Below are positions 27,056-63,420 of a stretch of 64,000 nt of DNA, piece after piece (position 1 is the first letter of the stretch; each line of letters begins with the position of its first letter). Location: positions 36,081,648 through 36,145,647 of the forward strand of contig NC_092673.1 of NCBI RefSeq assembly GCF_964355755.1, in the 5' to 3' direction. The notes under the pieces are model-generated. The model was not told the DNA's origin. It made no database searches and saw only the letters and a list, made by a program, of their open reading frames with translations. Made by a program: the position numbers and the translations under genes. Origin of the DNA: Antedon mediterranea (lineage: Eukaryota; Animalia; Echinodermata).

Positions 27056-28603
27056 ATGGCGGACTCGGTAATAAAAACGATCATTTTAATGCTACTGATA
27101 ACTTTACTCAGTGTTGGAAATGGCCGACATACACATAGACGGAATAAAACTAGAGGCGACCCCAAGAAGAAGAACGTATTAATAATGTTTGTTGACGATG
27201 GTGGATTTGAAAGCCCAGTGTACAATAATACAGTCTGCAAAACTCCAAACTTGTCCGCATTTGCTAAGCGTAGCGTTGTATTACGTAGAGCCTATACATC
27301 TGTGAGCAGTTGTTCACCAAGTCGCTCTGCTTTACTCACTGGACTACCACAGCATCAGAACGGTATGTACGGATTACATCACTCATTCCATCATTTTGAA
27401 TCATTTGAAGGAGTCAAAAGTATCCCACTGATTCTAAAGGACCATGGTGTTCGGACGGGCATAATTGGTAAGAAGCATATAGGGCCTGATGACGTTTATA
27501 AATTCGATTACGAAAGAACAGACGAACATTACAGTATGTTACAAGTTGCTAGGAACATCACTAACATGAAAATTCTTGTGAATGAATTTCTATCCATGGA
27601 TGATCGTCCGTTTTTCCTTTATATTGCTTTCAAAGATGTTCACAGATGCGATGCAGGTATTGAAAAATATGGACAATTTTGTGAACGATTTGGAAATGGT
27701 AGCCAAGAGACGGGAACTATTCCAGATTGGAAACCAGCATATTACGACCCATTTGACGTCATTGTGCCATACTTTCTACCCGACACATTGGCAACCAGAC
27801 AAGAAATTTCAGCACAGTATACGTCGGTCAGTAGAATGGACCAAGGGGTCGGACTTTTCCTAAACGAACTAAAATCGTTGGGGTTCCTTGATAACACGTT
27901 GGTTATCTACACTGCAGACAATGGTATACCTTTCCCTAACGCAAAAACAAATCTGTACGAAAGCGGCATGGGTGAACCAATGATTATATCATCTCCTATG
28001 CACACCGAACGTTGGGGTGAGATTAGTGATGCTATGGCCAGTACTATTGATATTGTACCGACAATACTAGATTGGTTTGGAGTTGACTACCCATCATACC
28101 TCCTTAATGGTGTCACTGTGAATCTGAGTGGCAAATCTTTACTTCCAATATTGACTTCTGAACCAACAACGGGAGAGAAGTTTGATGAAGTGTTTTCCAG
28201 TCATGATCTACACGAAATAACAATGTACTACCCAATGAGAGTTGTACGCAATCGTCAGTACAGACTAATACATAACCTGAACCACGCCACGTCATATCCG
28301 ATCGCACTCGACATTTTCATGTCCCCAACATTCCAAGACACGTTAAACCGATCCCATGAAGGAAAGCCAACCAACTGGTTCAAGTCTTTACACCAGTATT
28401 ACTATCGACCAGAGTGGGAACTGTACGATGTCAACAATGATCCACAAGAATTGACCAACTTGATAGATAACTCGACACTGGCTGACATGGTGAAGAACCT
28501 GAAGACCAGCTTACAGGCATGGCTAAAAGAAACCAATGATCCGTGGCAATGCCTACCTAATGGCGTGTTAGTTGGGTCTGAATGTTGGCCTCTTTATAAC
28601 TGA
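27056..28603 (+). CDS. SGSH: N-sulphoglucosamine sulphohydrolase (sulfamidase)-like, single coding exon
   Basis: 515-aa ORF with hydrophobic signal peptide, NVLIMFVDDGGFES, formylglycine motif SSCSPSRSALLTGLPQHQNGMYGLH, RTGIIGKKH, YTADNGIPFP, HEITMYYPMR, YYYRPEWELYD and TNDPW. Probable 5'-UTR exon ending at 26441 (AAG|gtatgt). Confidence 0.95.
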   Translation: MADSVIKTIILMLLITLLSVGNGRHTHRRNKTRGDPKKKNVLIMFVDDGGFESPVYNNTVCKTPNLSAFAKRSVVLRRAYTSVSSCSPSRSALLTGLPQHQNGMYGLHHSFHHFESFEGVKSIPLILKDHGVRTGIIGKKHIGPDDVYKFDYERTDEHYSMLQVARNITNMKILVNEFLSMDDRPFFLYIAFKDVHRCDAGIEKYGQFCERFGNGSQETGTIPDWKPAYYDPFDVIVPYFLPDTLATRQEISAQYTSVSRMDQGVGLFLNELKSLGFLDNTLVIYTADNGIPFPNAKTNLYESGMGEPMIISSPMHTERWGEISDAMASTIDIVPTILDWFGVDYPSYLLNGVTVNLSGKSLLPILTSEPTTGEKFDEVFSSHDLHEITMYYPMRVVRNRQYRLIHNLNHATSYPIALDIFMSPTFQDTLNRSHEGKPTNWFKSLHQYYYRPEWELYDVNNDPQELTNLIDNSTLADMVKNLKTSLQAWLKETNDPWQCLPNGVLVGSECWPLYN

Positions 28604-29384
28604 TGGAGCAGCCATGTATCGCACAATAGCACAATTATTACATTCATTGATATTCTAAAATACTACCTCATTTTTTTCTTAACGGCTAAAACAATCCATG
28701 ACATGTTATGGATACTGGCCTTATTATTATTATTATTGTTATTATTAATGTGAACTTGCAATGGTATATTGGCATGCTTCGTATATTTAGGGCTTACGCC
28801 TATTATGTATTATGGTATATTATGTATTTTCATACATTTTCATAATATTATTATAAAGAAACTTTATTTGTATTGTAATAAACACAGTAGCCATGATTTT
28901 CTTTTAAGTCATTTAATATTAATAAGCATCAGGGTTGTATAACAGTACGGTAAATGGTTTAAAATTAAAAACAATGTAAATACTACCGTTTTACCATAAT
29001 GCACGGATGCATGCATGAATGTTGTACCGGTTTACCATAATGCACGGATGCATGAATGTTGTATATAGAAGTACTGTAGTTTGTTGAATGATGTTACTGA
29101 ACCAATTTCACAAACATATCAGTTACATCGAATATAGTAGACTATTACTCCTTGGTACATTATCTGACCCATTTAAATCGTGAAATTATCGTAAATTATT
29201 ATTCACGATCGATATCGTGAAACACAGTTACACTAAATGTTAATAATGAGCCACCTGCTATAGTGACTGTCTAATTCACCCCATCATTCTCTTTTTTTTT
29301 AACGTCTCTCGATGCCACTGTGCTTGCCAGGTCATTGATCCATCGAGAGCGACATCATTTTTCAGAATGATAACATTCATGTGC

Positions 29385-32300
29385 TTATTTACATGAAAGA
29401 AGTCCAAATGGGTCACTAATGTCATTCTGAAAGGTACAATATGAAACGTACCCGAATTTATTCAGATGATTATACTTGCATATAGATGTTTCGAGTAATG
29501 TATAGATAATTACCTGGTGAGGAGGCGCTTCAGTTGACAGACTCGTGAAAGAGAAGTGTTTGGCATAGCGCGAGTACTTGAGAATCGCTGCTAAATTCCC
29601 ATCCACAACTGTCCGAGTACCAGTCTACAAAAAGAGTGTGTTACGGTAAATCACATCCAACCTAAATAGTCAAACTTTTGATTGAGATTAATTTACATAC
29701 TGCAAATATAGTACTACTCACCGTGAAAGTAACAGAGTTGTCAAATACTAACTTATCCAGGTGGTCTTCGGTTCCATTAAACTTCACTTCAGATTCCGTC
29801 GATTTACCACTGGCTTCTGGCGGTAACTTAAACAGTCGACACGTGATCGACGCATACTGGATATCACCTTTTTATTTAACAATAGAGAGTTTTGTTAAAA
29901 AATAGAAATTTTCGTTTGTTTTAAATATTTTTATATTAAAAGCTGAACAGACATACCAACCAGTTCTTTATATTCGGGCTTGTTGACGTTAATTTTACGT
30001 ATTGCATAAAGTCGTGGACGCGTAAATCCCACTTCTTCGGCAATTTCAAGCAATTGAGACCAGGTGAGTGCTCCAGCCAATCCATCACCTGTAATAAGAT
30101 TGTAAATCAGTAATTGAAATTAGTACTTTCTTTTATGCTTTACAGAGAAGATAGTTCATTTCATTGTTGATGTAGTCCTAAACTCGATCATATAATGGTC
30201 GATAATAAAAATTATCAATTCTCTGAGGCAATCCTATTTGGAACAAATCACAAATTAAACATGTATAAACAATTAATGTCCAGGTTTATCACTCGATCAG
30301 TAATTAAATTGTGAACATTTGAATAGAGTTATTAGTACTAATTCATTCTCCCCAGATATTAAATGTAATTTTTATTTCAAACCTACTACTTACCCCAAAG
30401 TGATTTGTTTGTCTTCAAGGTGTCTGGAATCGGCTTATTAGCATACATATCGCTAAAAAAGATCTCACCTCCATCTTTTAAAGAAGTGTATGCTTCTTTT
30501 AACACTGACCGTTTATCGGGCGATAGGTTTATTACGCAGTTGGACCTATTATATTAACATTTAAAAAATTAATTTTGAGTGAAATGAGTGACGATGTGGT
30601 GATCCTATAATTAGTGGGTTAGGATAGGAAATGGGTTATTATTTAATAATAACGAATGATAATGGAGGATCTATGCAGTGACTCGAATCGGACATTATAT
30701 TGTACAATCGATGCTGTTACTGCCCCACATGTCTGGCAACCTTTAACATATTGTAGACGGATGATAATTGCCAATAAGTAATAGTTTGAACTTACACAAT
30801 AACGTCAAATTGGTTAGCCTTAATTCCAGATGCAGACAGCTTCTCTATATATCCTTCCTTAAAATCAACATTACTCTCGTTGTATCCGAATGCTTGGCAA
30901 TGATAGTCGACGTATTTCTTAGCAAAACTTAGCTATATAACATTAAAACATACATTGTGGTTAAGCATTTAGAAGTTTTATAAGTGTGTGTATCGCTTGT
31001 ATTTTATGCTGGTCGTCATATCATTGTCAGCGATGACCTCATAATTACGAAGACAACATAGTCCATAGACATTGCATTATTAGTTCGTTCAAATTCAACA
31101 CTAACGTTATAATTTGTTTTTGAATTTTGAATCTGCTGGTGGGGCACTGATTAGAACATTGGACTCTCATTGGTTCCTTCCAACCAACCCAGGTGACAAA
31201 AATTAGCACTGGTATTTTTACTGACTCAGACTGGTGTAACACTCACAAACATGAACAGTACTATCAGTGGAGGTCTGCTCTAAACGGTCAATGAAATGGA
31301 GATAGGTAGGCAGCACGGTGGTTAGATAGGTACGGTAGGCAGCACGGTGGTTAGATAGGTACGGTAGGCAGCACGGTGGTTAGATAGGTACGGTAGGCAG
31401 CACGGTCGTTAGATAGGTACGGTAGGCAGCACGGTCGTTAGATAGGTACGGTAGGCAGCACGGTCGTTAGATAGGTACGGTAGGCAGCACGGTCGTTAGA
31501 TAGGTACGGTAGGCAGCACGGTCGTTAGAAAGGTACGGTAGGCAGCACGGTCGTTAGATAGGTACGGTAGGCAGCACGGTCGTTAGATAGGTACGGTAGG
31601 CAGCACGGTCGTTAGATAGGTACGGTAGGCAGCACGGTCGTTAGATAGGTACGGTAGGCAGCACGGTCGTTAGATAGGTACGGTAGGCAGCACGGTCGTT
31701 AGATAGGTACGGTAGGCAGCACGGTCGTTAGATAGGTACGGTAGGCAGCACGTTCGTTAGATAGGTACGGTAGGCAGCACGGTCGTTAGATAGGTACGGT
31801 AGGCAGCACGGTCGTTTTAGAAGCTTCGATTTCGACTTTACCCTTAGGCTTGGTTCTCACTAGGACGCACCGCAACGACACAAGCAATTTGACCAATCAT
31901 GACGTGTAATTGGTCAAATAACTAGTGCGTTGCGCGTCGCGTCCTGATTCCCAAGTGGGAACCAAGCATGTGTGAATTGGAATATAGGCCTTACAAACTG
32001 GGTCCTCTTGTAGACTACCTCAAAATTGTGATTATTGTCAAATTACTTGTTTAATTGATAAATGAAGGCTTACCAGTTCGTCGGTCATATCAATACCAGT
32101 GACATGACCATTTGGTCCAACCATCTTGCTAAGTAAATAGACATCTCGCCCTGTCCCACATCCCAAGTCAAGCACATGAGCCTCAAGTAGACAAGAAGGC
32201 AGAGGTAAACCACATCCAAAATATCTGGTGTAAGAAATTAAGATAAAAATAACTGGTGTAGCTAAACCTGAGGGTATCACTATCAGTATATATTTTGTAT

Positions 32301-34134
32301 GATTTTTTAATTTGTAAAGGGGGTTAAACTGTTTTAACCATTTAAAGAAAAGCATGTTATTTGAAAAAATATTTATACAAAATCTCGGCAGTCTGACGAC
32401 CGAGGCAGGCCTAAAGTAAAATCGTTTTCAGATTCAATGACGGAATTAAGTACATCGTGTCACGAAAATTGTAATTTAAAGCATAAAATAGTCAAATTGT
32501 TTGTCTGACAAACAAAAGTACTGTACAATTTAAATTATAATAAAAAATGCAATAAAAACGAATAAAAAGGTAGACAAAGTACAATATCGCTCACTTTGTC
32601 TCTATGAACTACGGTATCTATAAGTTTAACATATTAACTTTTGTAGGAGTGTGTGATTTTTCTTTCTGTTCTCGGTTTTTGAATTGTTGGTAGTTTAGGC
32701 CTACATTGACATTGGTTCGGAGCAAGCGAGGAATACTACCGGTACTGTACGGATATATAGGGGGACAATATTAAGCGAAGGTAAATTTAACAATTCTAAA
32801 GCTAAATTTATACACACTATACGGTAATTAGACTGGGCCAATTTTACCCAGTGAGGGACGCAGGTCCTGCAATTGATACATTGCTAAATTTATTTTATTT
32901 TTTTATTCAATTTACAAGACCTCCACTAACAGGTTGAAATAAAAGAAAAAAGAACACAACTTTTACAATTTGAGATCTAAAAATGGATAAACTATTTTAA
33001 AAATATAAATATCATAAACATTTAATGTATTGACATTTTTAGCTAATCTTTGAAATAAACCTTTGTAACGTCACTGGCCCAAAAGTTACATGAATTAAAT
33101 TCCTTGAGTGAGGGATAGGTAAGCCGTCGCTATTTCCAGATCCCGGGGAAAACTCCCTCTGACAGCCAGACAAATCGGGATACATTTCTCATAGGAACGT
33201 AAAATATTAGATGTTCAAAATGTACATGCATTCATGTCCTCATTATAAACGAACTCTTATATATTTAGACGATTAACTTTTCAATAATTAATTAACACGA
33301 TATTAATACAGTACTTTTAATTTACCTCTTCCAAATCCTAGTATATCTCTTTAAGAAGGTTTATACAGGGACAAAACAATTGCATATTCCAGGCAGAGGT
33401 AATATATTATTTCCGAAGTATAGGCCTAGACTGTATTTCTAATCCAAATGAAATAATAATGATAATAATTTATAAATTAATACTTTACTTTACTATATAA
33501 TTTGAAGGGGTTAAACTATCCCGAGTGAAAGTTTTTTTTTTCAGATTCAGACACCAAATTCACTCCATCGCGTTGACACGTGGGTTGTGGACTTTGGACA
33601 AAAGGTTACAGAACAGATCGTCACGAAGAATCTATTTCTATCGACTTCAATCTGTTGATTATCAGTAGTGGGCCCGTCAGTGGGATACTAACGCTATAAT
33701 TCGTAATTAAACAGCCTGAACATTTAGATTGTTGGCCATGTGCCTACACACCACATACCAAACGTGAACAATGCATGGGTTCAGAGACGAGCAACCCCAA
33801 TAATGACGTCACAATATAAACTAAAATAAAAAATAATGTAGATGCAGATAGGGTTGTTCAATTTGTGTGGGTTTAGCTTTTTAGGCTATGTCTGATTATT
33901 TATATACCAGCACATTACAATAATAATAAGGCCTCAATAATAATACTCTTTTTACCTTTCCTTAATATCTCCATGTACCAAAGAAAGAGCATTTTTTGCG
34001 CCCTTCGTCATCATCTGTGTTGCTTTTAGTGAACAAACATCAGATCCAAACCTAATTGATCCTTCAAGAACATTTTTATAATAATCTTGCATGTCATTCC
34101 AAGTTTCTGTTGACTTTTTAACACAAGTAGACAT
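29385..34134 (-). CDS. AS3MT: Arsenite methyltransferase-like SAM-dependent methyltransferase, 8 coding exons
   Basis: Minus-strand exons 34134-33956, 32224-32074, 30932-30796, 30545-30394, 30088-29957, 29867-29722, 29624-29514, 29426-29385. Motifs QDYY, RYFGCGLPLP, VLDLGCGTGRDVYLLSKMVGPNGHVTGIDMT, NVDFKEGYIE, FDVIVSNCVINLSPDK, LKDGGEIFFSDMYA, LWGDGLAGALTW, ISDPF. Confidence 0.92.
31305..31816. repeat. 29-bp tandem array, about 17 copies, in AS3MT intron 2
   Basis: Unit ggtaggcagcacggtcgttagataggtac. Confidence 0.92.
31848..31967. mobile_element. 120-bp palindromic MITE-like element
   Basis: gcttggttctcactaggacgc...ttgaccaat pairs with attggtcaa...gcgtcct...agtgggaaccaagc. Confidence 0.65.
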
Positions 34135-39513: not shown

Positions 39514-39726
39514 TGTTACAATGGTATAGTTTACTGTGGGCATGCTTCAAGGCAGCTTGACCTCCAATAGATGATGTGTAGCATGTTACAATGGGATAGT
39601 TTATTGTGGGCATGCTTCAAGGCAGCTTGACCTCTAATAGATGATGTGTAGCATGTTACAATGGTATAGTTTATTGTGGGCATGCTTCAAGGCAGCTTGA
39701 CCTCCAATAGATGATGTGTAGCATGT
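39514..39726. repeat. 70-bp tandem repeat x3 just downstream of the mitoferrin stop
   Basis: gttacaatggtatagtttattgtgggcatgcttcaaggcagcttgacctccaatagatgatgtgtagcat three times. Confidence 0.85.
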
Positions 39727-40494
39727 ATAACATAGAAGAATAGAATACACACTATTTTACCAATGAACAAAGTAGTGCCTTGCAATAACCACAAATCATT
39801 AGTTTATGTAATACAGTAGTCAACACTATTTCATACTTTTTAAACATAGAGTACTGTTCTACTGGTTTGTATACAGCACTGTAGGTAGTCATTCACAATA
39901 AATCATGTTTTTGCTTCCAAATTGAAGATGTTTTAACATGGGGTTCTTACTGAAAATTATTGTGGATAGGTCATTAGTTTTGTTATTGTATTCTGATGCC
40001 TTTATCAACAATGGGAAAGTAATCTATCATATGTGGCCTAGCTTTATTGTGTGAGATTAACATTATTGTTTTCCTTTCATTTGGCAATCTAACTAACTTG
40101 AACAAATATGTTTTTGTTTTTCCCCCAAAAAACAACTGAAAATGAAATAATAGTGTAATATGGATTTGTGTTGCATTATTCAACTCACAAATTTGCATAA
40201 TGTTCTTGCATGTAATGTCAAGATATGAGGAATAATATAATTTAGTTTTGTGTATACTTTTCAGAAGCACACCAAATTAGCAAATTGTAAGCAGATTAAT
40301 AAGTTTTGTTGAATAACATTTACAGTATTCGTGACTGGTGTATTTGCACCTTCACTAAACTAAGATTTTATGTTGCTTGGCTGCAGTGTTACTATTTTGT
40401 ACATTGATTGTGCAATTAACAAAAGATATTACTGTTTGAAGTAAACTTATTTTGTTGTACATTAAAATGCAGTAAATATGTACTGAAAACTTGT

Positions 40495-40726
40495 GTTGGT
40501 TTAGCAAGGTTGAAACAGATAGATGAGGTTTCCCTATCAAAATGTTGCTAACATGAACACTACTACTTGGTTGGTTTAGCAAGGTTGAAACAGATAGATG
40601 AGGTTTCCCTATCAAAATGTTGCTAACATGAACACTACTACTTGGTTGGTTTAGCAAGGTTGAAACAGATAGATGAGGTTTCCCTATCAAAATGTTGCTA
40701 ACATGAACACTACTACTTGGTTGGTT
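40495..40726. repeat. 72-bp tandem repeat x3
   Basis: gttggtttagcaaggttgaaacagatagatgaggtttccctatcaaaatgttgctaacatgaacactactacttg three times. Confidence 0.85.
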
Positions 40727-41414: not shown

Positions 41415-43440
41415 CTATGCTTTACTCAAGTCCTTATTTAGTGTAAATAGTTCTTCTCCTTGCTTTATAGCGTAATCAATGCCTTCACATATTTCCTGCC
41501 ATTTCTTTGGCACAAACTCCAATCCATAATAAGCTCCACCAATAGCACCGGCCATTGTTGCTATTGTATCTGTATCTCCATCCATTGTAATGGCGTAAAG
41601 TATGGTACGCACAAGGCCATTATCTGTTGGAATACTTTCAATGTGTTTAACTGATCGCAAGAAACAGAAGATTGCTGTAACTACAGATTGATGTGCTGCT
41701 ATGCCATTGCCTGTAAAAATATGAAATTAAACTTTACATATTTCTCATTCTATACACCATCAACAGTGTATGACATCCTTTCCCTTTAGAATATTACATA
41801 CCAAGTTGTTCAACCACTTTTTATTTTAAACTTTACATATTTCTCATTCTATACACCATAAACAGTGTATGACATCCTTTAGAATATTACATACCAAGTT
41901 GTTCAACCACCTCTTTATTTTCTACATTATTCCTTTTCAAAAATTCTTTTACAATTTTCAACTTGTTTGCATATACTGCTTCCTCAGAAACACGCTCATC
42001 AAATCTATTTTAAAAACAATAGAAAATAATGCAATCAGTAATTTTAGACATAAAGATAATATTTTATTTAATAATTTATTTTACTGAAGTAGAACAGAAG
42101 TAATAATTATACCTTGATTTTGTAGCTTCGCTGACTTCTTCTGCTCCTCCTTCAACATGTTTCATTATATCAATTAATCCATCAACAAGTTTATCTGTAT
42201 CGATATCCGTTCCATTGTCAATGTGAAGCACATTGTGGATTGCACAGCATAGTAACAATGCACCATTATATCCTAAGCTGTTAGAATGTGTTAAACGGGC
42301 AGAGTCAACAGCAACCTATGTAGTAGATCATTTGTTAAAATTATTGAACCTTTTTTGCCACTTGACAGTATCGCCATTTTAAATATGAAATGTGGAATCA
42401 TGTTTAGTTTGAATTCTTGTTGATCAAAGCATATTGATCGAAACATCGAGAAACTCAACAGTTATTTTCAGAACTAATACACGTGGTGTACCGCAAACTT
42501 TATATCAACAATTTTGAAAATCCACAAAGTTGGTCATTGAACCTACCTGTTTCATAGTTTCAAAGTTATTGTAGAAAGCAAGAGCAACTGGTGCTACTCT
42601 CATTGCTCCACCATTCCCATAAGATCCACTCCCATTAAATTGTGTTGTTGCTGGATGATAAATATTGGTTAATGCAGGGTCCGCTAATCTTTGAAATATA
42701 TCTGTTACATTTGCTCCATACCCTCTCCAGTTCTCCTTTACGTATTCATCATTGAATCTGCAATTTTGATTAGGAAATTCAAAATGATATATGCAGCACA
42801 GAAATTGAATGGAACAATAAATATGAAACATAATAATTATAATGTTGAATAGATTGTGCTACCTTTTAGCCATATCCCGTGCATTAAACTTGCATGTACT
42901 CTCTATGAGGGACTGAGCAACTGACCTGGCCATAGCTGTATCATCTGTAAACTTTAGTTTCTCTGTAAATGCAGAAAAAACACACTCACAAATGCTGGAC
43001 ACATAGATATATCAGTACCATAATGCAGGAGTGCAAGTATACAATTTATTAGGTTCAATTTAATGGTTTATTATTATAGAAGTGATTGTTGTTGTTCACT
43101 CACAGTATTATTTACTTATTCTATTATGTTCATTTTATATGTATGAACCCTAACCCTAACCCTAACCCACTGAAGTGGATTTTCTATTTTATGTATGAAC
43201 TGCCCACTGAAGTGGATTTTCTATTTTTACAATTCAACTTAAAGATGAGAAGGATGCATGAATCATTTGGAACGTACTAGAATCAAAACTCAACTCCTCT
43301 TCAAACTTGATAACCTTGTTGACACTTTCAACACCACATACTTCAAACGGAGCACCAAGGCAGTCGCCAGCAACTGCAGCTGCCAAACAACCCTGAAAGC
43401 GAGCCTTTAACTTGTGTCCCCATGCTGCAGTTGCAGACAT
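41415..43440 (-). CDS. ADPRS: ADP-ribosylhydrolase ARH3 (ADPRHL2), 6 coding exons
   Basis: Minus-strand exons 43440-43278, 42962-42863, 42757-42547, 42315-42113, 42004-41895, 41710-41415. ARFQGCLAAAVAGDCLGAPFE, FTDDTAMARS, RGYGANV, QFNGSGSYGNGGAMRVAP, SARLTHSNSLGYNGA, LGNGIAAHQSV, DGDTDTIATMAGAIGGAYYG. An acceptor at 43505 implies an upstream exon, so the start could extend. Confidence 0.93.
41728..41910 (-). repeat. Two-copy duplication (about 90 bp) spanning an ADPRS exon end and 5' splice site
   Basis: Sense-strand GTGGTTGAACAACTTG|gtatgtaatattctaaagg occurs at the true donor (41894) and again at 41801 inside the same 184-nt intron. Confidence 0.85.
43146..43168. repeat. Short interstitial telomere-like (TAACCC)n tract
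   Basis: aaccctaaccctaaccctaaccc, about 4 units of the TTAGGG complement, in an ADPRS intron. Confidence 0.7.
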
Positions 43441-45031: not shown

Positions 45032-48000
45032 ATGCAACATGACGATGTAAGTATTTCTTTATTTGGGATCTTCATTTAAACATTGATTTCAATATTAGTT
45101 TAATTTCTAATTTCTTATAATATCACTATCTAGGCATCTAGAATTTAAATTCTAGGCTAGGCTAGGCCTAGTCCTCGGAGGACTAGAAGTCCGTCCTTCC
45201 TTGTGTAGGATTAGGAACTAGGGAGCCTGACCCTGGGTCGATTCGTCCCAGGAACAATTCAACCCGGCAATATTATTGTATGTTATTAGCCTATAGTAGT
45301 AGGTAAATTAATTTTATACACAACAACTTCAAACACTTTCTCTTGACTTAGATTTATTTGCATTTTAAATCACAAATTGCATTTATGATTTAATTAAAAA
45401 CAAAGAAAAGTGGCTAACCACCGAAATGAGCCAGTTTCATTAAAACTTTACCAAAACTGTATCCAATTTAGTTTTAGATTGTCTTTTTCTGGTTCAGTTA
45501 GCCAGACAATAATTATGTTGTATGAATAAAAATGAAATGAATTCATTATTTTTTTTTAAAATAATTACTGTTGTCTTGTCACAGGTCATATGGAGTATTA
45601 TTAACACCACATTCTGCTCATACAAAGTGAATTCGAAAACAACACAGTTTTGCCGTAATGAGTATAACTTAACAGGTTTATGTAACCGATCAGCCTGCCC
45701 TCTTGCTAACAGTCAATATGCAACAATCCGTGAAGAAAACGGTTAGTTTAGTAGATTATACACTTTCAGTTTTGCCGTAATGAGTATAACTTAACAGGTT
45801 TATGTAACCGATCAGCCTGCCCTCTTGCTAACAGTCAATATGCAACAATCCGTGAAGAAAACGGTTAGTTTAGTAGATTATACACTTTCAGTTTTGCCGT
45901 AATGAGTATAACTTAACAGGTTTATGTAATCGATCAGCCTGCCCTGTTGCTAACAGTCAATATGCAACAATCCGTGAAGAAAACGGTTAGTTTAGTAGAT
46001 TATACACTTTCAGTTTTGCCGTAATGAGTATAACTTAACAGGTTTATGTAACCGATCAGCCTGCCCTCTTGCTAACAGTCAATATGCAACAATCCGTGAA
46101 GAAAACGGTTAGTTTAGTAGATTATACACTTTCAGTTTTGCCGTAATGAGTATAACTTAACAGGTTTATGTAATCGATCAGCCTGCCCTGTTGCTAACAG
46201 TCAATATGCAACAATCCGTGAAGAAAACGGTTAGTTTAGTAGATTATACACTTTCAGTTTTGCCGTAATGAGTATAACTTAACAGGTTTATGTAACCGAT
46301 CAGCCTGCCCTCTTGCTAACAGTCAATATGCAACAATCCGTGAAGAAAACGGTTAGTTTAGTAGATTATACACTTTCAGTTTTGCTGTAATGAGTATAAC
46401 TTAACAGGTTTATGTAATCGATCAGCCTGCCCTGTTGCTAACAGTCAATATGCAACAATCCGTGAAGAAAACGGTTAGTTTAGTAGATTATACACTTTCG
46501 TAGTTACAATGTAAAGAGCAAGAAGTATTTAGGTGCTTTAATAATAATACTGTAATAATGACATTATATGTTTTATGTTGATAGGTGTTTGACATTATAT
46601 GGATTATATGTTTTATGTTGATAGGTGTTTGACATTATATGGATTATATGTTTTATGTTGATAGGTGTTTGACATTATATGGATTATATGTTTTATGTTG
46701 ATAGGTGTTTGACATTATATGCATTATATGTTTTATGTTGATAGGTGTTTGACATTATATGGATTATATGTTTTATGTTGATAGGTGTTTGACATTATAT
46801 GCATTATATGTTTTATGTTGATAGGTGTTTGACATTATATGGATTATATGTTTTATGTTGATAGGTGTTTGACATTATATGGATTATATGTTTTATGTTG
46901 ATAGGTGTTTGACATTATATGGATTATATGTTTTATGTTGATAGGTGTTTGACATTATATGGATTATATGTTTTATGTTGATAGGTGTTTGACATTATAT
47001 GGATTATATGTTTTATGTTGATAGGTGTTTGACATTATATGGATTATATGTTTTATGTTGATAGGTGTTTGACATTATATGCATTATATGTTTTATGTTG
47101 ATAGGTGTTTGACATTATATGGATTATATGTTTTATGTTGATAGGTGTTTGACATTATATGGATTATATGTTTTATGTTGATAGGTGTTTGACATTATAT
47201 GGATTATATGTTTTATGTTGATAGGTGTTTGACATTATATGGATTATATGTTTTATGTTGATAGGTGTTTGACATTATATGGATTATATGTTTTATGTTG
47301 ATAGGTGTTTGACATTATATGGATTATATGTTTTATGTTGATAGGTGTTTGACATTATATGGATTATATGTTTTATGTTGATAGGTGTTTGACATTATAT
47401 GGATTATATGTTTTATGTTGATAGGTGTTTGACATTATATGGATTATATGTTTTATGTTGATATGTGTTTGACATTATATGGATTATATGTTTTATGTTG
47501 ATAGGTGTTTGACATTATATGGATTATATGTTTTATGTTGATAGGTGTTTGACATTATATGGATTATATGTTTTATGTTGATAGGTGTTTGACATTATAT
47601 GGATTATATGTTTTATGTTGATAGGTGTTTGACATTATATGGATTATATGTTTTATGTTGATAGGTGTTTGACATTATATGGATTATATGTTTTATGTTG
47701 ATAGGTGTTTGACATTATATGGATTATATGTTTTATGTTGATATGTGTTTGACATTATATGGATTATATGTTTTATGTTGATAGGTGTTTGACATTATAT
47801 GGATTATATGTTTTATGTTGATAGGTGTTTGACATTATATGGATTATATGTTTTATGTTGATAGGTGTTTGACATTATATGCATTATATGTTTTATGTTG
47901 ATAGGTGTTTGACATTATATGGATTATATGTTTTATGTTGATAGGTGTTTGACATTATATGGATTATATGTTTTATGTTGATAGGTGTTTGACATTATAT

Positions 48001-51000
48001 GCATTATATGTTTTATGTTGATAGGTGTTTGACATTATATGGATTATATGTTTTATGTTGATAGGTGTTTGACATTATATGGATTATATGTTTTATGTTG
48101 ATAGGTGTTTGACATTATATGGATTATATGTTTTATGTTGATAGGTGTTTGACATTATATGGATTATATGTTTTATGTTGATAGGTGTTTGACATTATAT
48201 GGATTATATGTTTTATGTTGATAGGTGTTTGACATTATATGGATTATATGTTTTATGTTGATAGGTGTTTGACATTATATGCATTATATGTTTTATGTTG
48301 ATAGGTGTTTGACATTATATGGATTATATGTTTTATGTTGATAGGTGTTTGACATTATATGGATTATATGTTTTATGTTGATAGGTGTTTGACATTATAT
48401 GGATTATATGTTTTATGTTGATAGGTGTTTGACATTATATGGATTATATGTTTTATGTTGATAGGTGTTTGACATTATATGGATTATATGTTTTATGTTG
48501 ATAGGTGTTTGACATTATATGGATTATATGTTTTATGTTGATAGGTGTTTGACATTATATGGATTATATGTTTTATGTTGATAGGTGTTTGACATTATAT
48601 GGATTATATGTTTTATGTTGATAGGTGTTTGACATTATATGGATTATATGTTTTATGTTGATATGTGTTTGACATTATATGGATTATATGTTTTATGTTG
48701 ATAGGTGTTTGACATTATATGGATTATATGTTTTATGTTGATAGGTGTTTGACATTATATGGATTATATGTTTTATGTTGATAGGTGTTTGACATTATAT
48801 GGATTATATGTTTTATGTTGATAGGTGTTTGACATTATATGGATTATATGTTTTATGTTGATAGGTGTTTGACATTATATGGATTATATGTTTTATGTTG
48901 ATAGGTGTTTGACATTATATGGATTATATGTTTTATGTTGATAGGTGTTTGACATTATATGGATTATATGTTTTATGTTGATAGGTGTTTGACATTATAT
49001 GGATTATATGTTTTATGTTGATAGGTGTTTGACATTATATGGATTATATGTTTTATGTTGATATGTGTTTGACATTATATGGATTATATGTTTTATGTTG
49101 ATAGGTGTTTGACATTATATGGATTATATGTTTTATGTTGATAGGTGTTTGACATTATATGGATTATATGTTTTATGTTGATAGGTGTTTGACATTATAT
49201 GGATTATATGTTTTATGTTGATATGTGTTTGACATTATAATGACATTATATGTTTTATGTTGATAGGTGTTTGACATTATATGGATTATATGTTTTATGT
49301 TGATAGGTGTTTGACATTATATGGATTATATGTTTTATGTTGATAGGTGTTTGACATTATATGGATTATATGTTTTATGTTGATAGGTGTTTGACATTAT
49401 ATGGATTATATGTTTTATGTTGATAGGTGTTTGACATTATATGGATTATATGTTTTATGTTGATAGGTGTTTGACATTATATGGATTATATGTTTTATGT
49501 TGATAGGTGTTTGACATTATATGGATTATATGTTTTATGTTGATAGGTGTTTGACATTATATGGATTATATGTTTTATGTTGATAGGTGTTTGACATATG
49601 GATTATATGTTTTATGTTGATAGGTGTTTGACATTATATGGATTATATGTTTTATGTTGATAGGTGTTTGACATTATATGGATTATATGTTTTATGTTGA
49701 TAGGTGTTTGACATTATATGGATTATATGTTTTATGTTGATAGGTGTTTGACATTATATGGATTATATGTTTTATGTTGATAGGTGTTTGACATTATATG
49801 CATTATATGTTTTATGTTGATAGGTGTTTGACATTATATGGATTATATGTTTTATGTTGATAGGTGTTTGACATTATATGGATTATATGTTTTATGTTGA
49901 TAGGTGTTTGACATTATATGGATTATATGTTTTATGTTGATAGGTGTTTGACATTATATGGATTATATGTTTTATGTTGATAGGTGTTTGACATTATATG
50001 GATTATATGTTTTATGTTGATAGGTGTTTGACATTATATGGATTATATGTTTTATGTTGATAGGTGTTTGACATTATATGCATTATATGTTTTATGTTGA
50101 TAGGTGTTTGACATTATATGGATTATATGTTTTATGTTGATAGGTGTTTGACATTATATGCATTATATGTTTTATGTTGATAGGTGTTTGACATTATATG
50201 GATTATATGTTTTATGTTGATAGGTGTTTGACATTATATGGATTATATGTTTTATGTTGATAGGTGTTTGACATTATATGGATTATATGTTTTATGTTGA
50301 TAGGTGTTTGACATTATATGGATTATATGTTTTATGTTGATAGGTGTTTGACATTATATGGATTATATGTTTTATGTTGATAGGTGTTTGACATTATATG
50401 GATTATATGTTTTATGTTGATAGGTGTTTGACATTATATGGATTATATGTTTTATGTTGATAGGTGTTTGACATTATATGGATTATATGTTTTATGTTGA
50501 TAGGTGTTTGACATTATATGCATTATATGTTTTATGTTGATAGGTGTTTGACATTATATGCATTATATGTTTTATGTTGATAGGTGTTTGACATTATATG
50601 GATTATATGTTTTATGTTGATAGGTGTTTGACATTATATGGATTATATGTTTTATGTTGATAGGTGTTTGACATTATATGGATTATATGTTTTATGTTGA
50701 TAGGTGTTTGACATTATATGGATTATATGTTTTATGTTGATATGTGTTTGACATTATATGGATTATATGTTTTATGTTGATAGGTGTTTGACATTATATG
50801 GATTATATGTTTTATGTTGATAGGTGTTTGACATTATATGGATTATATGTTTTATGTTGATAGGTGTTTGACATTATATGGATTATATGTTTTATGTTGA
50901 TAGGTGTTTGACATTATATGCATTATATGTTTTATGTTGATAGGTGTTTGCTTTTTGTACATGAAAACAATAGAGAGAGCAGCATTTCCATCAAAGTTAT

Positions 51001-52202
51001 GGGAAAAGGTTAAGTTATCAAAGAATTATGAGAAGGCCTTACAACAAATAGATGATCAGCTACGATACTGGCCAAATTTCATCAAACACAAGTGTAAACA
51101 GCGTTTTACGAAAATCACACAATACTTGATACGTATGAGAAAACTTGTTTTAAAAAGACAGTAAGTTAAAATTGGATCAAACTGAACAGAAAATGATGTG
51201 CAAATTTCAATGGTATAATAGCAAAAAATTAGAATTAGTAACAACATGTAATAATATATATGATAAATAACATTTAGGTTGTCTATAAAGCTAAATATAG
51301 TCAGCCCAATTAAAACCAAGCATGTACTGTAGTCCATATCATAATATAATACATTTTGTCGAGTTCACATGATTTCAGATATTTTGATATTTTTACAGGA
51401 GAAAACTTGTTCCAATAAGCCGTAAAGTAGAAAGACGAGAGGAACGTAGGGAACAAAAGGCTTTGGTTGCAGCACAGCTTGATAATGCTATTGAGAAAGA
51501 GCTCTTGGAACGACTTAAAAAAGGAACTGTGAGTATTATTGTTCCGTGTGTAGGCCTGCTTTTTATATTTCACATAGAACACCATGTATATGTGTGACTG
51601 GTCTTTTTTTGCAGTATGGCGATATATACAATTTCCCAGCACATGCATTTGATAAGGCGTTAGATGCTCAGGAAGAAGATGAAAGTGAAGTGGAAGGAGA
51701 ACAAGAAGAAGAATATGAGGAAGAGGTAATGTCATTTAATCGCCTTTCTTGGATCTTTACACCTGAATATATGTTTGATAGTGTTAAGAAATTAGAAAAG
51801 TTGAGTTGGATTAACATTGATAAAAATGCTTGTTACTTTAGGAACCTGAAGTAGAATATGTGGCAGAAGGTGACTTTGAAGAAAGTGATTTAAGTGACTT
51901 TGAGGTGAGTTGGAACACATGATATAATAATAATCATTTTATTATTAATTTGTTATGTAAGTAGATGCAGATGCATTTGGTATTTAAAAGTATATTCAAT
52001 TTGTGCATAAATCAATATTTGTATTTTTTTGCAGGAGATGGACAAACTCCACAACATAAGCGATGATAATTCAAGTAGTTCAGATGAAGAGCAAAAGAAA
52101 AGTGTGAAAAAAATGTTCAAAAAGAAAAGACCACGAGTTGAAATAGAATATGAAAAAGAACTTGATCAGCCATCAACATCAAAACTAACTCTAAAATCAT
52201 GA
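45032..52202 (+). CDS. MAK16: MAK16 60S ribosome biogenesis factor, 7 coding exons
   Basis: Exons 45032-45046, 45585-45741, 50944-51160, 51399-51528, 51615-51725, 51842-51904, 52035-52202. MQHDD|[45 protein letters not shown]|[65 protein letters not shown]|YGDIYNFP, acidic tail, RPRVEIEYE. Confidence 0.96.
45645..46499 (+). repeat. 122-bp tandem array, 7 copies, duplicating the 3' part of MAK16 exon 2 and its donor
   Basis: Donor gttagt at 45742 + 122n up to 46474; copies 2-7 alternate between two variants. Confidence 0.95.
46560..50950 (+). repeat. 40-bp tandem array, about 110 copies, spanning the MAK16 exon 3 acceptor
   Basis: Unit gacattatatggattatatgttttatgttgatag|gtgttt; the last copy is the real acceptor (AG at 50942-50943). 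Confidence 0.95.
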
Positions 52203-55673: not shown

Positions 55674-58600
55674 TTCATTAAATTGTATCCAACAAAAGAA
55701 TCGCTTGGCAAAAATGATACGTCAAACATCTCTGGTTTCCTTAAATATAAAAAAAAAGTTGGGTCCTGATGCAAATGAATATCTCGACCTGAAATATGGC
55801 AAACTAAGTTTTAATGTCACTCCTGCCAGCCTCAAATAAATAATGTCTGCATCCAGTAAAAACATCTCAGCTAAGATGCCAGTAAAGCGTGGTTTCCAGT
55901 CGACGTAAGACTTGCTTCCGCTTACGATTGCGTCGTTTTCTTACGATTACGCTTGCGTTCCGATCAGTTGACCAAAAACTAACGTCGACACAAAATTGTC
56001 ATAATCACGTTGGACCGCACAAATTTAGATTATTACATGTGCTGATTCCGTCGTTATGAAAGTTGAATTTATCGCAAAGTCTGTCCTTCTTGCCCTTACG
56101 TCGAGTTGAAATTTTTCCTTGCGATTACAACACATATGACGTGATAACAAGAAATGATTTCTGATTGGCTCATAAATTCCGCGCGAATAGAGGAGGCCAT
56201 TTTCTAAAACATAAACAGTGCAGTGAGGCTATGACGTATTTTTTTACATAATCTTAATTAAAATGTTTATCAGTTCTTCTTTTGATAAGTTGCCGACAAA
56301 TTTAATCTTTTTATTCTGAGAATTATTTTATGAGCGGCTTAAACAATCCCATGATTTTACCCACCCAGGAGAGCTTGTTTATCGGAGTTTTACTTTTGTG
56401 TCTGCCGCCTTTTGTTTTGATTTTCTTTGTACCACCCTGCATGGCTTATTGTTTATGATTAGACTGTTGTTATAATTGTCTGTTCTTCGAATTATTTTTT
56501 ATTCCTGATGATGATGATCTTTATTTGATGAACGTTGAATATCATGACTTGCCTACGATGTTGTTTATATACAGTACAGTTTATCTATTAGGTTTTTTTT
56601 ACCCGGTTTTCATTTCTTTTTTTTATAAATAGATAATTCAAATGATGTAGGCTAATAATTATTTATTTTCATCATCAAATTATCATATGCCTATAAATTA
56701 TGTTTAGATTCAAGCAAACACTACGGTGAATTTAATAAATATATATTATTAATTTATTACCCAACATACCTTCATCATACAATTAAAACAAAATCATTAC
56801 GTAATTTTTCCCCACCTACTTTTGAATGCAAACTATATGCCAGGTGAAACGTATTGTTATCCTGATGATCCTGATGATGACACTGTTCTCTAACATTTTA
56901 TTATTATTAATTTAGTCTGTCTGTGTGTATTATTTTTACCCATTATATCGTATTTTTACTATGTTTATATAATTATAATAAGTAACAAGCAAGACAATTT
57001 TGTATAGTTCTCACATCCATTTTGTATTTCATCCACCTAAATTATTACATTCTATCACGAATTGAACAACATCGTGGTTCAGGTTTATTTACGTATCATT
57101 TATTGTCAACAATTCTTATATACGGTACTTTCTACTTTCTTTCACCTTTCTAAGCTTTGACCTTCTTGCCAACGTCACATAATCCTCGTCACTGATTAGC
57201 TGGTTCTTACGATCCTTGCGCTTACTCTTACAAAAGTTGACTTCAAGCGTAAGCGGAAGGGTATAAAATCGCATCGTAAGACATGTTCATCCAGAAATTC
57301 ACCGGTTTCCTGTCGAATCGTCGAATATCGACGTAACAGACGGAAGCTTCAGTCATTGGTTTCCTGTCAAACACTTGTACTACGGCGATTTCTACTTGCG
57401 TTATGTCGTTTTGACATTTAGCTTTTTTCAACCGGTTTCCTGTCGATTTTCAATTTCCAATGTAAAAACGACGCAATCGTAAGAAATTCTAATTTATTAA
57501 TTTTCTTACTTAACTAGTTTGTTTTGCAGTGTATTAATATGTTAAAACTAAAACATTGAGACTGAATGAAAATTATAATTTAAAAAAAAGTGTATCATAG
57601 GGCAGCCTTTATTTTTTGGATCATAAATAAAGTGTATCATAGGGCAGCCTTTATTTTTGGATCATAAACAAAGTGTATCATAGGGCAGCCTTTATTTTTG
57701 GATCATAAACAAAGTGTATCATAGGGCAGCCTTTATTTTTGGATCATAAATAAAGTGTATCATAGGGCAGCCTTTATTTTTAGATCATAAACAAAGTGTA
57801 TCATAAGGTAGCCTTTATTTTTGGATCATAAATAAAGTGTATCATAGCAGGGCAGCCTTTATTTTTGGATCATAAATACACATGAAATGCAAAAGATGTA
57901 TGTCTGATATTTTCTTTTGGAAGATTTATAAATTGTTTATTAAAACAAAATCAAGTTGATTCTCATACTTTCCTTTGCCATGTAGCACAACACAATATAT
58001 CGTATAATAATTCTACAGTAAAAAGGCAATGTTTTCTGTCCACTGCCTCATGGTAATTTATACTGATAGTAATTCATAAATGAATTTGATTAATATACTA
58101 AATGCATAAATACATAACCAAGTACTGTACAGTGTCATAGTTGATAAAACATGTATTGAATATACATGTATACTTATACTATTTTGGATAGCATATTTAG
58201 ATGTGTTGATATAGTTTGGTTCTTATTCTTTATAATTTTGTTTTCTTTTTGTTGCCATTATTGGTCGTTGCCATTATTTGTTTATGACCTAGTGGGGAAA
58301 TTGGCTTTGCATGCTATATGTGGTTAGTACGTACCAAAATGTACGAATATATTCACATCATGTAGACTAATTATTCCAAAATTGTATTTTGCTCTAGGAT
58401 GTGGACACGATATTGTAATGGAGATCCACGCTCATAAAGAGGGAGTATGGTCTGAACAGATTCAGTTATCAAGCAAATTGGACAACAACAACAAAGTGAT
58501 CTTAGTTGTTCATGCAAGAGTCATGGGTATATATCTTTTTATATCAATATACTGTATCTTTTTATATCAATATATTTTTAATATGAACACTTTTTTAATC

Positions 58601-59023: not shown

Positions 59024-59710
59024 TGGATACAGTAGAGTTGTATCCATGTCACCAGTGATAGTCCAGTGACATGGTGACATGGATACAGTAGAATTGTATC
59101 CATGTCACCAGTGATAGTCCAGTGACATGGTGACATGGATACAGTGGAGTTGTATCCATGTCACCAGTGATAGTCCAGTGACATGGTGACATGGATACAG
59201 TGGAGTTGTATCCATGTCACCAGTGATAGTCCAGTGATATGGTGACAGTAGAGTTGTATCCATGTCACCAGTGATAGTCCAGTGACATGGATACAGTAGA
59301 GTTGTATCCATGTCACCAGTGATAGTCCAGTGACATGTCACCATGGATACAGTAGAGTTGTATCCATGTCACCAGTGATAGTCCAGTGACATGTCACCAT
59401 GGATACAGTAGAGTTGTATCCATGTCACCAGTGATAGTCCAGTGACATGGTGACAGTAGAGTTGTATCCATGTCACCAGTGATAGTCCAGTGACATGGAT
59501 ACAGTAGAGTTGTATCCATGTCACCAGTGATAGTCCAGTGACATGTCACCATGGATACAGTAGAGTTGTATCCATGTCACCAGTGATAGTCCAATGACAT
59601 GGTGACATGGATGCAGTAGAGTTGTAGCCATGTCACCAGTGATAGTCCAGTGACATGGTGACATGGATACAGTAGATTTGTATCCATGTCACCAGTGATA
59701 GTCCAGTGAC
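59024..59710. repeat. Tandem array of hairpin-forming units (about 51-59 bp, about 12 copies) downstream of the C20orf27 stop
   Basis: Units combine gtgacatggataca-gtagagt-tgtatccatgtcac with cagtgatagtcca linkers. Confidence 0.9.
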
Positions 59711-61830
59711 AGAAATTCATTCTTTTTATAACAGAACTTGTTTTGTATAATCAGACAGTTTATATACCAATTATTATTATTATTAGTGATAATACTTTTA
59801 ATAGGCTTTCTCAATACATACTGTATTAAGCAAAAAGCTAAACATCTACTGTCGAAAATGAGGGTGGTTGGTAGTAGACAATACAATATTTTAACTTCAA
59901 TTAAGAAATACAGTAGTTGGTATATAAACTGTTTTTGGCGAGAAACAATCGCATTTAATTTAACTTATTTAATTTTAGATATTATTTGTAAATTTGTATT
60001 TTTTATACTGTGCCAAATTGTGTAGGATAAATAGAGTAGTAATTACTGTAATACATTGATAAGCATATTTAAAACTTTATTGAAACATAAGTTCATGTAT
60101 TTTATTATAGTTACTGCAGCTTGTGGTTAGGGGTGTTTTATGCTGTCATTCTAGCAAGTGTTTCAAGGTGCAATTAACTCATTGCTAACTAGTCAAATTA
60201 GTATTATTACTGAGATAATGTACAGGGGCGGGCTATTCCATTTTGCATATATGTATAATTGAAATAATACTATTAAATAACTATCAATATATATATATAA
60301 ACAAATCAGGCAAAGAACACTAATTCTAAACTGCCCGGTAATATACTGAAATTTAATTAATTAATTTGAAACGATAAAGATGAGGAAATCTGTGAGAATG
60401 AGAAAAAGTCGTATATATATATATATATAGTATAATAAAAAAAAATTTGATTAAAATTTGATAATGGTAGAATAAAATGAATTATATTGCAGAGGATGCC
60501 TTTGCACCATCATTCCTTTAAATCCGCCATTGATATAGTACAGTGTATTTAGGGCTACGTTGGTGATGAATACAAACATGAGATGTAATTTGAATTCAAT
60601 TTTTCCTCCATGTATTTTATTCATTAATACAAATTTATTGTGAAATAAAACTATCACAATGAAAACGAAGACAAATCGTGTTTATATAATTAAAGCTATT
60701 TTGGTTTGTTTATTTTATTTTCACATGAACCAACTGCAAATACTTTTTACTAAATGTGAAACCCATGTTTTTTAAAATAATCAAATCTCATTTTATTATG
60801 CTTAGGTAGTGAGGCTGTATTTGAGGGCTGGAAAAAATCCTGCCAGAAAGACCCTTTGGAACTAGCAAGCACTAGCGCTGCAAAATACAGTACCTGTTGT
60901 TGTGAAAGAGTATTATCATCATTTACTACTTGGAAAAATGCCAAGCACATTTCATTTTTGTTTGCAAGTGCCAGCCTTCTGTCTTTCGTCAAGTATTTCA
61001 CTCAGTTTTTATAAACGCTTGATTTCCAACTGCTCTTCTGTTGTCATTGAGGGATGTTATTTCAAAACATGTACATCATCACTGCATAGACTTTATTGCA
61101 ATCATACCAATTATTTCATGTCCTGTTATTCACTACCCGATTTATTCAACAACAAAATAAACAAATGTGTTATACTGTTTTTTATTTTATTTTTTGTCTT
61201 ATTACATAAAAAGTGGAATGAATTTAACAATACAGTACTTCCCCAGACTTCAGTTTTGAATTTCTGAAGGTAAATATGTTGTATAAAATTGATTATATTT
61301 GGTAAAGCAGTGCTGGATTTGGTATAGCAATTATCTTACTTGTTGTACTAGCCAGATTTCAGCGTAATGATTTTATAAAAACACGCTTGTAATGTACAAT
61401 GGTATTGCTATAATATTGTTACTTTTCAGCTAAACCATAAAAATACTGTACATGATTTTAACATCCAAATGAAAACAATTATTTTCAGCAAATTGTGAAA
61501 TTTAGAATTCTGCAACCCATTAATTTTTATGTTTTGAAATTATAATAGTAAAATATTTTTTAATATTGAAAATTCATTTTTTAGCAAAATATTATTAAAT
61601 AGGCAACTAACTATACTGAACTCAAAATAACATGGTCTGCATTTTGTTGACAGATTAAAACTTTTTTCAAATTGTTCATTATCTACATTTGCTGTATCTT
61701 GACGATAACAGTAGTAAGTCATGAATTGGTCATCACAATTTCTCAATGATAGTTTTTGTTGCTTGAAGACTTGTAAAAAGTAGTTGAAGATGCATATTCT
61801 AGAAGACTGAATTAAAAACTCCCAGCAGAT

Positions 61831-62031: not shown

Positions 62032-63293
62032 GGCTGTTTAAAATAGAAACAAATCAAATTATTTATAACAATCAATATGATAACAACAATTAAAAAAGGT
62101 CATGCTTCAAAATTTCAGAGGCTGCTTTATCTTCTGATCGGTTGTCACATTGTTGGTACAGTAAATAGGCCTACAGTATATCAATAGGCTAGCTAGGCGG
62201 ATCGGGTCATCCGGGGCTGGCTAGGCTACTGTAGGCCTAGGCTAGCTAGAGAATGTACGTCACTACTCGTGCTGATACCGATATGATAGCCTACGCCTGC
62301 TAAACTGGCTAACCGCCGTTCTGTTGATAAAAAAAATCAACAAGAATTTATTATAAATGAAATAAATGTTCCCACCGTGATAAATTTATTCTTGTAAACC
62401 TTAGATTGACAGTAAAAAAGATGTATTTTCTGATGACTTCCGTTCTGGAATTACAGCATCAGACCAACTCTATCGGCGACGCCTATTTTGGTTGTTCTTT
62501 GAGGGTCTCTCGATAGAGGGCGCGCGGTGGGAAAATGTAACTCCTCTCTGTTTTGGATTCTTTTATTCGGAAAACTTGTTTCCGCAGAGGGATTTTCTTC
62601 TTTTTTTCATCTTTTTTTCTTTTTCAACGTTCCACCATTATTATTTGAAATATCTTAATTTGTTAATTTGATAGGAGGCGGAACCAAAAAACTGATGTTA
62701 TCATTTTTTATATGTTCAATATAGGCATTGCCAAGGAAAGTGACGGCCCTCTTTACCTTCTGGACCAACAACAAATTGTTCCTTTCGTTTAATAGGGGGA
62801 CCGACCACCAAGTAACATTACAAATTAAATGGGAAAATGAATGAATGACTAATTTGACAATACATGTTGGCATCAACCAATGAAAGCTGTCATAGACAAT
62901 GCCTCATCATGTTCATATATTATGAAGATCCATGTTGTACTACCATCTAAATGAATGTAATTTTGATCTTTGTCAAGAGAAAAATCCTCCAAGGCGTATG
63001 ACAGAGGATTTGAACCGGTAGTTTATCCACCCCCTTCTCCACTTTATCGAATTTGTTTTTTTAAATGGTTGATCTCGACCCCACCACTGATGATAGTTCG
63101 CTAAATAAGCTATATATGTTTTATCCTTAACTGGGCCATAAACAAATAGAATAAGAACGCAACATGTTTGAATCACCGGCCAATTGTTATTTTATTTCAC
63201 AATTTCAAATAATAAAGTCTTATATATGAATTCATGACTTGTGTTTTGCCAATCTTCCCACCAATGAGGCAATTAAGTTCTTGTCATCAATGG

Positions 63294-63420
63294 GATCACA
63301 TCTTTCACATAATGGAATTATTCAGTGAATGCCTCTCTGATGAGGACGGTTAGTAGAGGGACCACATCTTTCACATAATGGAATTATTCAGTGAATGCCT
63401 CTCTGATGAGGACGGTTAGT
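63294..63420. repeat. 66-bp direct duplication downstream of G-gamma copy B
   Basis: cacatctttcacataatggaattattcagtgaatgcctctctgatgaggacggttagt twice. Confidence 0.8.

Follow-up and report, generated by a model that had tools for sequence, protein, structure and literature searches.

How a gene finds the one acceptor that keeps its reading frame, when 103 decoys stand in front of it, is the question raised by intron 2 of MAK16 in the feather star Antedon mediterranea. The intron lies in a 64,000-nt stretch of contig NC_092673.1 (positions 36,081,648 to 36,145,647 of the forward strand), referred to here as the window, and all positions given below are those of the window. The 3' part of the intron is occupied by a tandem array of 40-nt units. 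The array is a mirage minisatellite, i.e., a boundary-spanning tandem repeat of the type known from amphioxus; it has the testable features that define such repeats and mostly lacks those of recursive ratchet points. We consider it probable that this minisatellite is made of copies of the intron 2/exon 3 boundary of MAK16, likely produced by recent tandem duplication and likely near-neutral, and that the assembled mRNA uses only the last acceptor, likely as no other copy is directly followed by the whole of exon 3 with its donor.

Arrays at both junctions of MAK16 intron 2

The translation of the seven-exon MAK16 model was identical, letter for letter, to A. mediterranea protein P0001, which is named MAK16 by its source, so the gene had been correctly named in an earlier reading of the letters alone (the sequence-only reading). 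All exons are on the plus strand: coding exon 1 (45032–45046), exon 2 (157 nt, 45585–45741, with the donor at 45742), exon 3 (217 nt, 50944–51160, starting with GT and present in an RNA contig) and exons 4–7 (51399–51528, 51615–51725, 51842–51904 and 52035–52202). Exons 2 and 3 matched consecutive stretches of Pfam PF01778 (positions 1–54 and 57–115, respectively). The 5202-nt intron 2 between them (45742–50943) holds one array at its donor side and another at its acceptor side.

The acceptor-side array (46555–50950, plus strand) was detected by Tandem Repeats Finder (TRF) with a period of 40, 109.7 copies, 98% matches and a score of 8604, which is far above chance. Each unit combines the last 33 nt of the intron with the first 7 nt of exon 3. 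Splitting the array gave 110 units: 89 were of the majority type, 12 carried G>C at position -23, six had AG changed to AT (altered base at 47464, 47744, 48664, 49064, 49224 and 50743) and three were single odd forms, namely the first unit, a 42-nt unit at 49232–49273 and a unit with three bases missing at 49594–49630. About 110 complete 3' splice signals had been counted from the sequence; the number of units was right, but AG is retained in only 104 of them, comprising 103 decoys and the true acceptor. The six AT units stand at the places where AG-less copies had been named.

The joining of exon 2 to a decoy results in Gly-Val-stop (three decoys were translated and the others are identical in the relevant bases), and the reading frame continues only from the last AG, at 50943, as seen in the translation of exon 2 joined to it. 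At every decoy, stop and product differ by a single base, as the sequence-only reading had it. AG and GT are juxtaposed at all 103 decoys and also at the true acceptor because exon 3 itself begins with GT; each such site is a copied exon start and not an evolved ratchet point. The branch-like TTTGAC, with its A at about -33, was confirmed in the repeat units, but the first decoy is without it and has another candidate at -44. Both this motif and the stop codon are created at the exon/intron seam between units. In the last unit, the working 3' splice site extends over 50911–50943 (plus strand), with AG at 50942–50943 corresponding to the joint in an RNA contig and the A at 50911 (-33) as the putative branch point.

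The interior of the array is homogenised and its boundary units are distinct, as is typical of mirages. The string of variant labels revealed a duplicated block of 24 units (46752–47711 and 47952–48911, together covering 46752–48911 on the plus strand); none of 300 shuffles reached 24, the longest shuffled match being 19. The start motif of the array does recur in the odd 42-nt unit at 49232–49273, but the block duplication deduced from this recurrence was not borne out, with one in-register non-majority match found against a shuffle mean of 0.78 (P = 0.58). This unit is likely a template switch back to the array start.

The donor-side array (45645–46499, plus strand, detected by TRF) consists of seven units of 122 nt, each made of the last 97 nt of exon 2 and the first 25 nt of intron 2. 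It contains six decoy donors, and only the first of the seven donor copies (45742) keeps the frame. About 60 nt of the intron had been described as unique; about 55 nt indeed are, but they form the middle of what appears to be an intact ancestral intron of 111 nt (46474–46584, plus strand), bounded by the last donor copy and the first decoy AG.

The 3' part of MAK16 is contained in 17 public runs, in all cases as contigs, and six of these (X1, X5, X6, X9, X10 and X13) were examined. X10 comes from a different organism whose contigs are 90–95% alike to the window sequence. A single X10 contig of 3059 nt carries a unique exon 2, a 117-nt intron and exon 3, with neither array. It aligned to 46377–46591, i.e., the last donor copy, the spacer and the first decoy, with 14 substitutions and six inserted bases. 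Because of this alignment, the ancestral intron appears to be preserved whole between arrays that copied both junctions outward, and both arrays are likely tandem duplications across the two junctions of intron 2. The C form of the relative is retained in the last unit of the acceptor-side array, and G is found in 96 of the 110 units. The one relative, together with the high identity of the units, suggests that the arrays were gained in the Antedon lineage; X13, from a third species, yielded no aligned contig and so speaks neither for nor against it.

Evidence for the array and for the acceptor used

The acceptor-side repeat is genuine, as follows from the read depth in X1 and from repeat contigs in three samples of two other studies. 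In X1, the repeat contigs had a depth of 25000 (the same value three times, apparently a ceiling) relative to 326.5 for single-copy sequence, which corresponds to at least about 77 copies. X5 and X6, which belong to one other study and have nearly all contigs at least 99% alike, contain the 40-mer as a repeat, and so does X9 from a third study. X6 also contains the donor-side array, with a joint that goes back by 122 nt. Depths in X5 and X6 were excluded as copy numbers, these being small runs in which depth declines along the gene. An assembly artefact, with the array missing or far shorter in the animal, can be given almost no credence in view of the X1 depth, the repeat cycles in X5, X6 and X9, and the structured variant blocks. 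In its favour are the absence of any contig spanning the array, the possibility that X1 is the assembled sample itself, and the restart motif at 49232, which could be a join of two haplotypes. The count of 110 units is the figure of the assembly; the collapsed repeat contigs give no copy number.

The use of the acceptor was traced in X9, a run recorded only as 'RNA?' and available only as contigs. In a 1127-nt contig (depth 121.5), all four downstream introns were removed at GT..AG, and exon 2 was present as a loose end before 50943, which indicates a joint between exon 2 and the last AG. The terminal unit of the array is thus the authentic site and regular mRNA is made, as judged from the contigs of this one run. 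No joint between exon 2 and a decoy was present in the two X9 contigs obtained per search, including a joint to the first decoy, located 111 nt past the last donor copy. The collapsed repeat had a depth of 21 in comparison with 121.5, or about 0.17 unit for each mRNA (0.16% per copy, assuming 110 copies in the X9 animal). This is a rough value, as expression is poorly measured by depth, and a trace of pre-mRNA or DNA could account for it. The mRNA contig starts within the duplicated part of exon 2, at 45656 (46388 in the aligned copy), and not at its edge.

The sequence-only reading had suggested that splicing might ratchet recursively down the array or that the decoys might act as poison sites, and had called for a search for internal splice intermediates. 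The X9 contigs show the last AG only. Both models are weakened by this result and not formally refuted, because contigs cannot exclude rare intermediates.

How the last acceptor may be chosen

That the decoys pose a question of acceptor choice was upheld. With splice-site matrices built from 22 verified introns of the window, the common decoy scored 6.7 bits and the true site 4.9 bits. Since the decoys equal or surpass the true site in score, local sequence cannot discriminate between the acceptors. A cryptic AG inside the donor-side unit reached 0.0 bits, lower than 20 of the 22 real acceptors. In the 50 nt beyond the shared seven exon bases, four GAA/GAG words were found at the true site versus none at both decoys checked. 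The donor of exon 3 is strong (8.8 bits) and is located 217 nt from the last AG, whereas the next two AGs would give exons of 257 and 297 nt; 18 of 20 internal exons here are not longer than 253 nt. The choice must come from downstream, because scanning from 5' to 3' on a first-come basis would pick the first and wrong site. For human genes, the accessible part of PMC9225289 reports that long flanking introns favour the sites nearest across the exon, which for 3' sites takes the form of a reduced upstream bias.

A 40-nt duplication across the junction would have left the last copy as an intact acceptor with its exon, so that the gene survived the event, and slippage or unequal exchange may then have amplified and homogenised the array, likewise at the donor end. 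The enlarged 5.2-kb intron is putatively handled by exon definition, in which U1 on the strong donor of exon 3, together with the purine-rich exon sequence, would recruit U2AF to the nearest AG; the decoys, with only seven exon bases each, would have no usable downstream donor. For the working site, the branch point probably lies within the repeat, with -33, -44 and -50 as candidate positions, because the ancestral upstream region is now 4.4 kb away, before the first decoy. Mis-splicing to a decoy would introduce a stop at codon 60 and lead to decay of the transcript, and selection against decoys would stay weak because the mis-spliced products are cleared. Weak selection is also suggested by the loss of AG in only six of the 110 units.

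Two further candidates were tried and rejected. Predicted RNA structure was considered as the discriminator, as a unit can fold into a hairpin closed by the next one, but z was -1.34 inside the array and +0.52 at its end, and AG was unpaired alike at five decoys (0.34–0.51) and at the true site (0.47). Selection for AG loss was dismissed, as the six units concerned share one recurring change and no sweep is apparent.

Selection of the last acceptor could be leaky, the decoys (mostly the nearest one or two) being used substantially and their products decayed, so that MAK16 output would fall with array length, in a dose-dependent and unregulated way. We regard this as improbable. The decoy scores and the stop behind every decoy are in agreement with it, degraded RNA would escape contigs, and the human donor-side cases IFI 6-16 and CBS use the nearest one or two pseudo-sites, as stated in the accessible part of PMC1557585. 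However, the X9 contigs were free of decoy junctions and their repeat depth was low, the AG-less units have not spread, and the array is carried by three samples of two other studies.

Stepwise removal of the intron is very unlikely. It would proceed through an internal AG whose regenerated donor is reused, ratcheting down the array, or by cutting inner donor-to-decoy pieces first (e.g., the 111-nt ancestral intron) and joining the outer sites last. AG|GT is available at every decoy, short-lived intermediates would be invisible to contig data, and an intact short intron does stand between the arrays, short introns being described as favouring the closest cross-intron pair (PMC9225289, accessible part). 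Nevertheless, the regenerated donor scored 2.2 bits; all 22 real donors reached 3.9–10.1 bits, and even among 437 ordinary intronic GTs 17% equal or exceed the regenerated donor. Its 9-mer also forms the exon junction of the normal mRNA, where it has to remain silent, and recursive ratcheting is unlikely because the regenerated donor is both weak and identical to that junction. A joint of 46473 to 46585 continuing into the repeat was absent from X9.

Ratchet points, in the accessible part of PMC8605326, are ultraconserved, lie in long introns and have a strong donor together with a cryptic exon. The MAK16 array shares with them AG|GT juxtaposed inside an intron, and differs from them in the weak regenerated donor, in its absence from a 90–95% identical relative, in its location in a 5.2-kb intron grown from about 0.11 kb, and in that no cryptic exon is closed by a donor of its own (as a donor, AG|GT in the following unit scored 0.3 bits). 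It rather resembles accidental regenerated sites at ordinary exon junctions, which are suppressed by the exon junction complex, as described in the accessible part of PMC8184009. If stepwise removal did take place, an expanded minisatellite would have turned a short intron into a many-step recursive one, with its length tuning MAK16 output.

The array might also have been selected as a regulated poison switch, with conditions that shift splicing to the decoys turning MAK16 off, which we find exceedingly unlikely; the suggestion gained no support beyond the stop codons. MAK16 is a ribosome-assembly factor and as such a plausible target of growth control, and alternative acceptor choice does give a premature stop, one base away from product. 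Poison-splice elements are typically conserved, whereas the array is absent in X10. Moreover, the stop arises at the duplication seam, one decoy would be enough, and similar arrays are present at two junctions of an unrelated neighbour gene and in introns and untranslated regions with no link to splicing.

Several points weigh against the interpretation favoured here, that of a near-neutral minisatellite whose last acceptor is chosen from across exon 3. In the accessible part of PMC9225289, competing 3' sites favour the upstream one overall, and exon definition lessens this bias without abolishing it; the data are human and concern two competing sites versus 104 here. Poor regenerated sites can work when the exon junction complex is absent (PMC8184009, accessible part), so the weak score of the regenerated donor is not decisive. 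Exon definition, branch use and the decay of rare errors are steps that we infer. The RNA evidence comes from one run of uncertain label and from contigs, which lose rare forms, and the direction of change, gain or loss, is judged from one relative and from the 98% identity of the units. Finally, junction-spanning arrays make up four of the six arrays in two verified genes versus 1.56 expected (P = 0.037, post hoc; the count excludes arrays of the GC-rich block and the expected value excludes exon-only placements), a hint that array placement may not be random.

Related arrays in the window and in other animals

Four mirage arrays are present in the window, as mirages tend to be several per genome. 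Apart from the two in MAK16, both are donor-side arrays of the neighbouring KNDC1-like RasGEF-domain gene, the model of which is identical to protein P0121, with exon ends also backed by the Anneissia protein P0122. The first (18124–21325, 40 nt x ~81) covers the end of exon 12 and its donor and changes to a 38-nt variant in its 3' part; the second is located at 22245–23533 (56 nt x 23). In both, the first donor is the one used in P0121 (18143 and 22295, respectively).

Altogether, 18 arrays with units of at least 20 nt make up 21.9% of the window; they were picked from 42 TRF rows, with the GC-rich repeats of 12.8–15.6 kb left out except for a 22-mer. The rate of short tandem duplication is generally high in the window. 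An intronic array at 24304–25130 (69 nt x 12) contains acceptor-like CAG motifs, some changed to GAG, and its minus-strand open frames of about 280 codons are an effect of the repeat. Mirrored GC-rich short repeats at 12809–13503 and 14691–15630 enclose an inverted element that contains a 22-nt array (14163–14620), and the whole intronic region (12809–15630) has the look of nested non-autonomous DNA transposons. A minus-strand gene at 29280–34110, which by eye we take to be arsenite methyltransferase-like, has an array of 18 units of 29 nt in an intron (31305–31816). At 41727–41921, a 99-nt two-copy duplication has its end some 15 nt away from what looks like a minus-strand acceptor in a gene that is presumably, by eye, ADP-ribosylhydrolase-like; it is a near-miss mirage, which would copy the branch region only. 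Further arrays with units of 41–75 nt occupy UTR-like, intronic and intergenic positions (39514–39726, 40489–40726, 57583–57876, 59024–59711 and 63292–63420). An intronless frame at 27056–28603, among intron-rich genes, was taken by eye for a sulfamidase (SGSH-like sulfatase) and may be a retrocopy.

Somatic instability of the mirage repeat has reportedly been noticed for amphioxus Adh3. The accessible parts of PMC3087553 and PMC3902484 describe such boundary-spanning tandem repeats, on either side of an exon and with splicing intact, in Adh3, the globin genes BflGb6 and BflGb9, troponin C and PGBD5. The arrays described here resemble them in that the unit spans an exon–intron boundary, in acceptor-side (as in BflGb6) and donor-side forms, and in that the copies retain AG or GT signals. 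They differ in their crinoid host, in the 110 units versus three and six in BflGb6, in the expansion of both ends of one intron, in the seven exon bases per unit and in the unexpanded intron seen in a close relative. The literature search, which left most subscription papers outside its scope, found no paper on crinoid mirages.

Human junction-spanning variable number tandem repeats (VNTRs) are known from F7 intron 7 (37 bp, 5–9 copies), IFI 6-16, CBS intron 13, lamin B2 and PDGF, and the F7 pseudo-sites become functional once the authentic site is lost (PMC1557585, accessible part). In these cases, all of them donor-side, identical splice sites are reiterated in the intron and splicing takes place at the copy next to the complete exon, as in MAK16. 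The 122-nt donor-side array of MAK16 is exactly the human donor-side form, whereas the acceptor-side array is its mirror image, with about four times the largest copy number (25 pseudo-sites) given for the human cases in the accessible part of the same source.

The mirage class was already known. The MAK16 case is set apart by its size, by the growth of arrays at either end of the same intron and by an ancestral state that can still be seen, and these make it well suited to tests of acceptor choice. With the four arrays of this 64-kb window, mirages are now also on record in crinoids, and a 0.11-kb intron is seen to be enlarged about 45-fold between close relatives via junction-spanning repeats. 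The array-free orthologous intron of the relative is a ready control. Stepwise removal or length-dependent expression, if shown, would raise the importance of the locus considerably. As it stands, it is a natural experiment in which an essential gene manages to pick out one acceptor from behind 103 copies of equal or better sequence. The rule of 3' site choice can be tested here on the acceptor side, with definition across the exon as one possibility and first-come scanning or proximity across the intron as the others.

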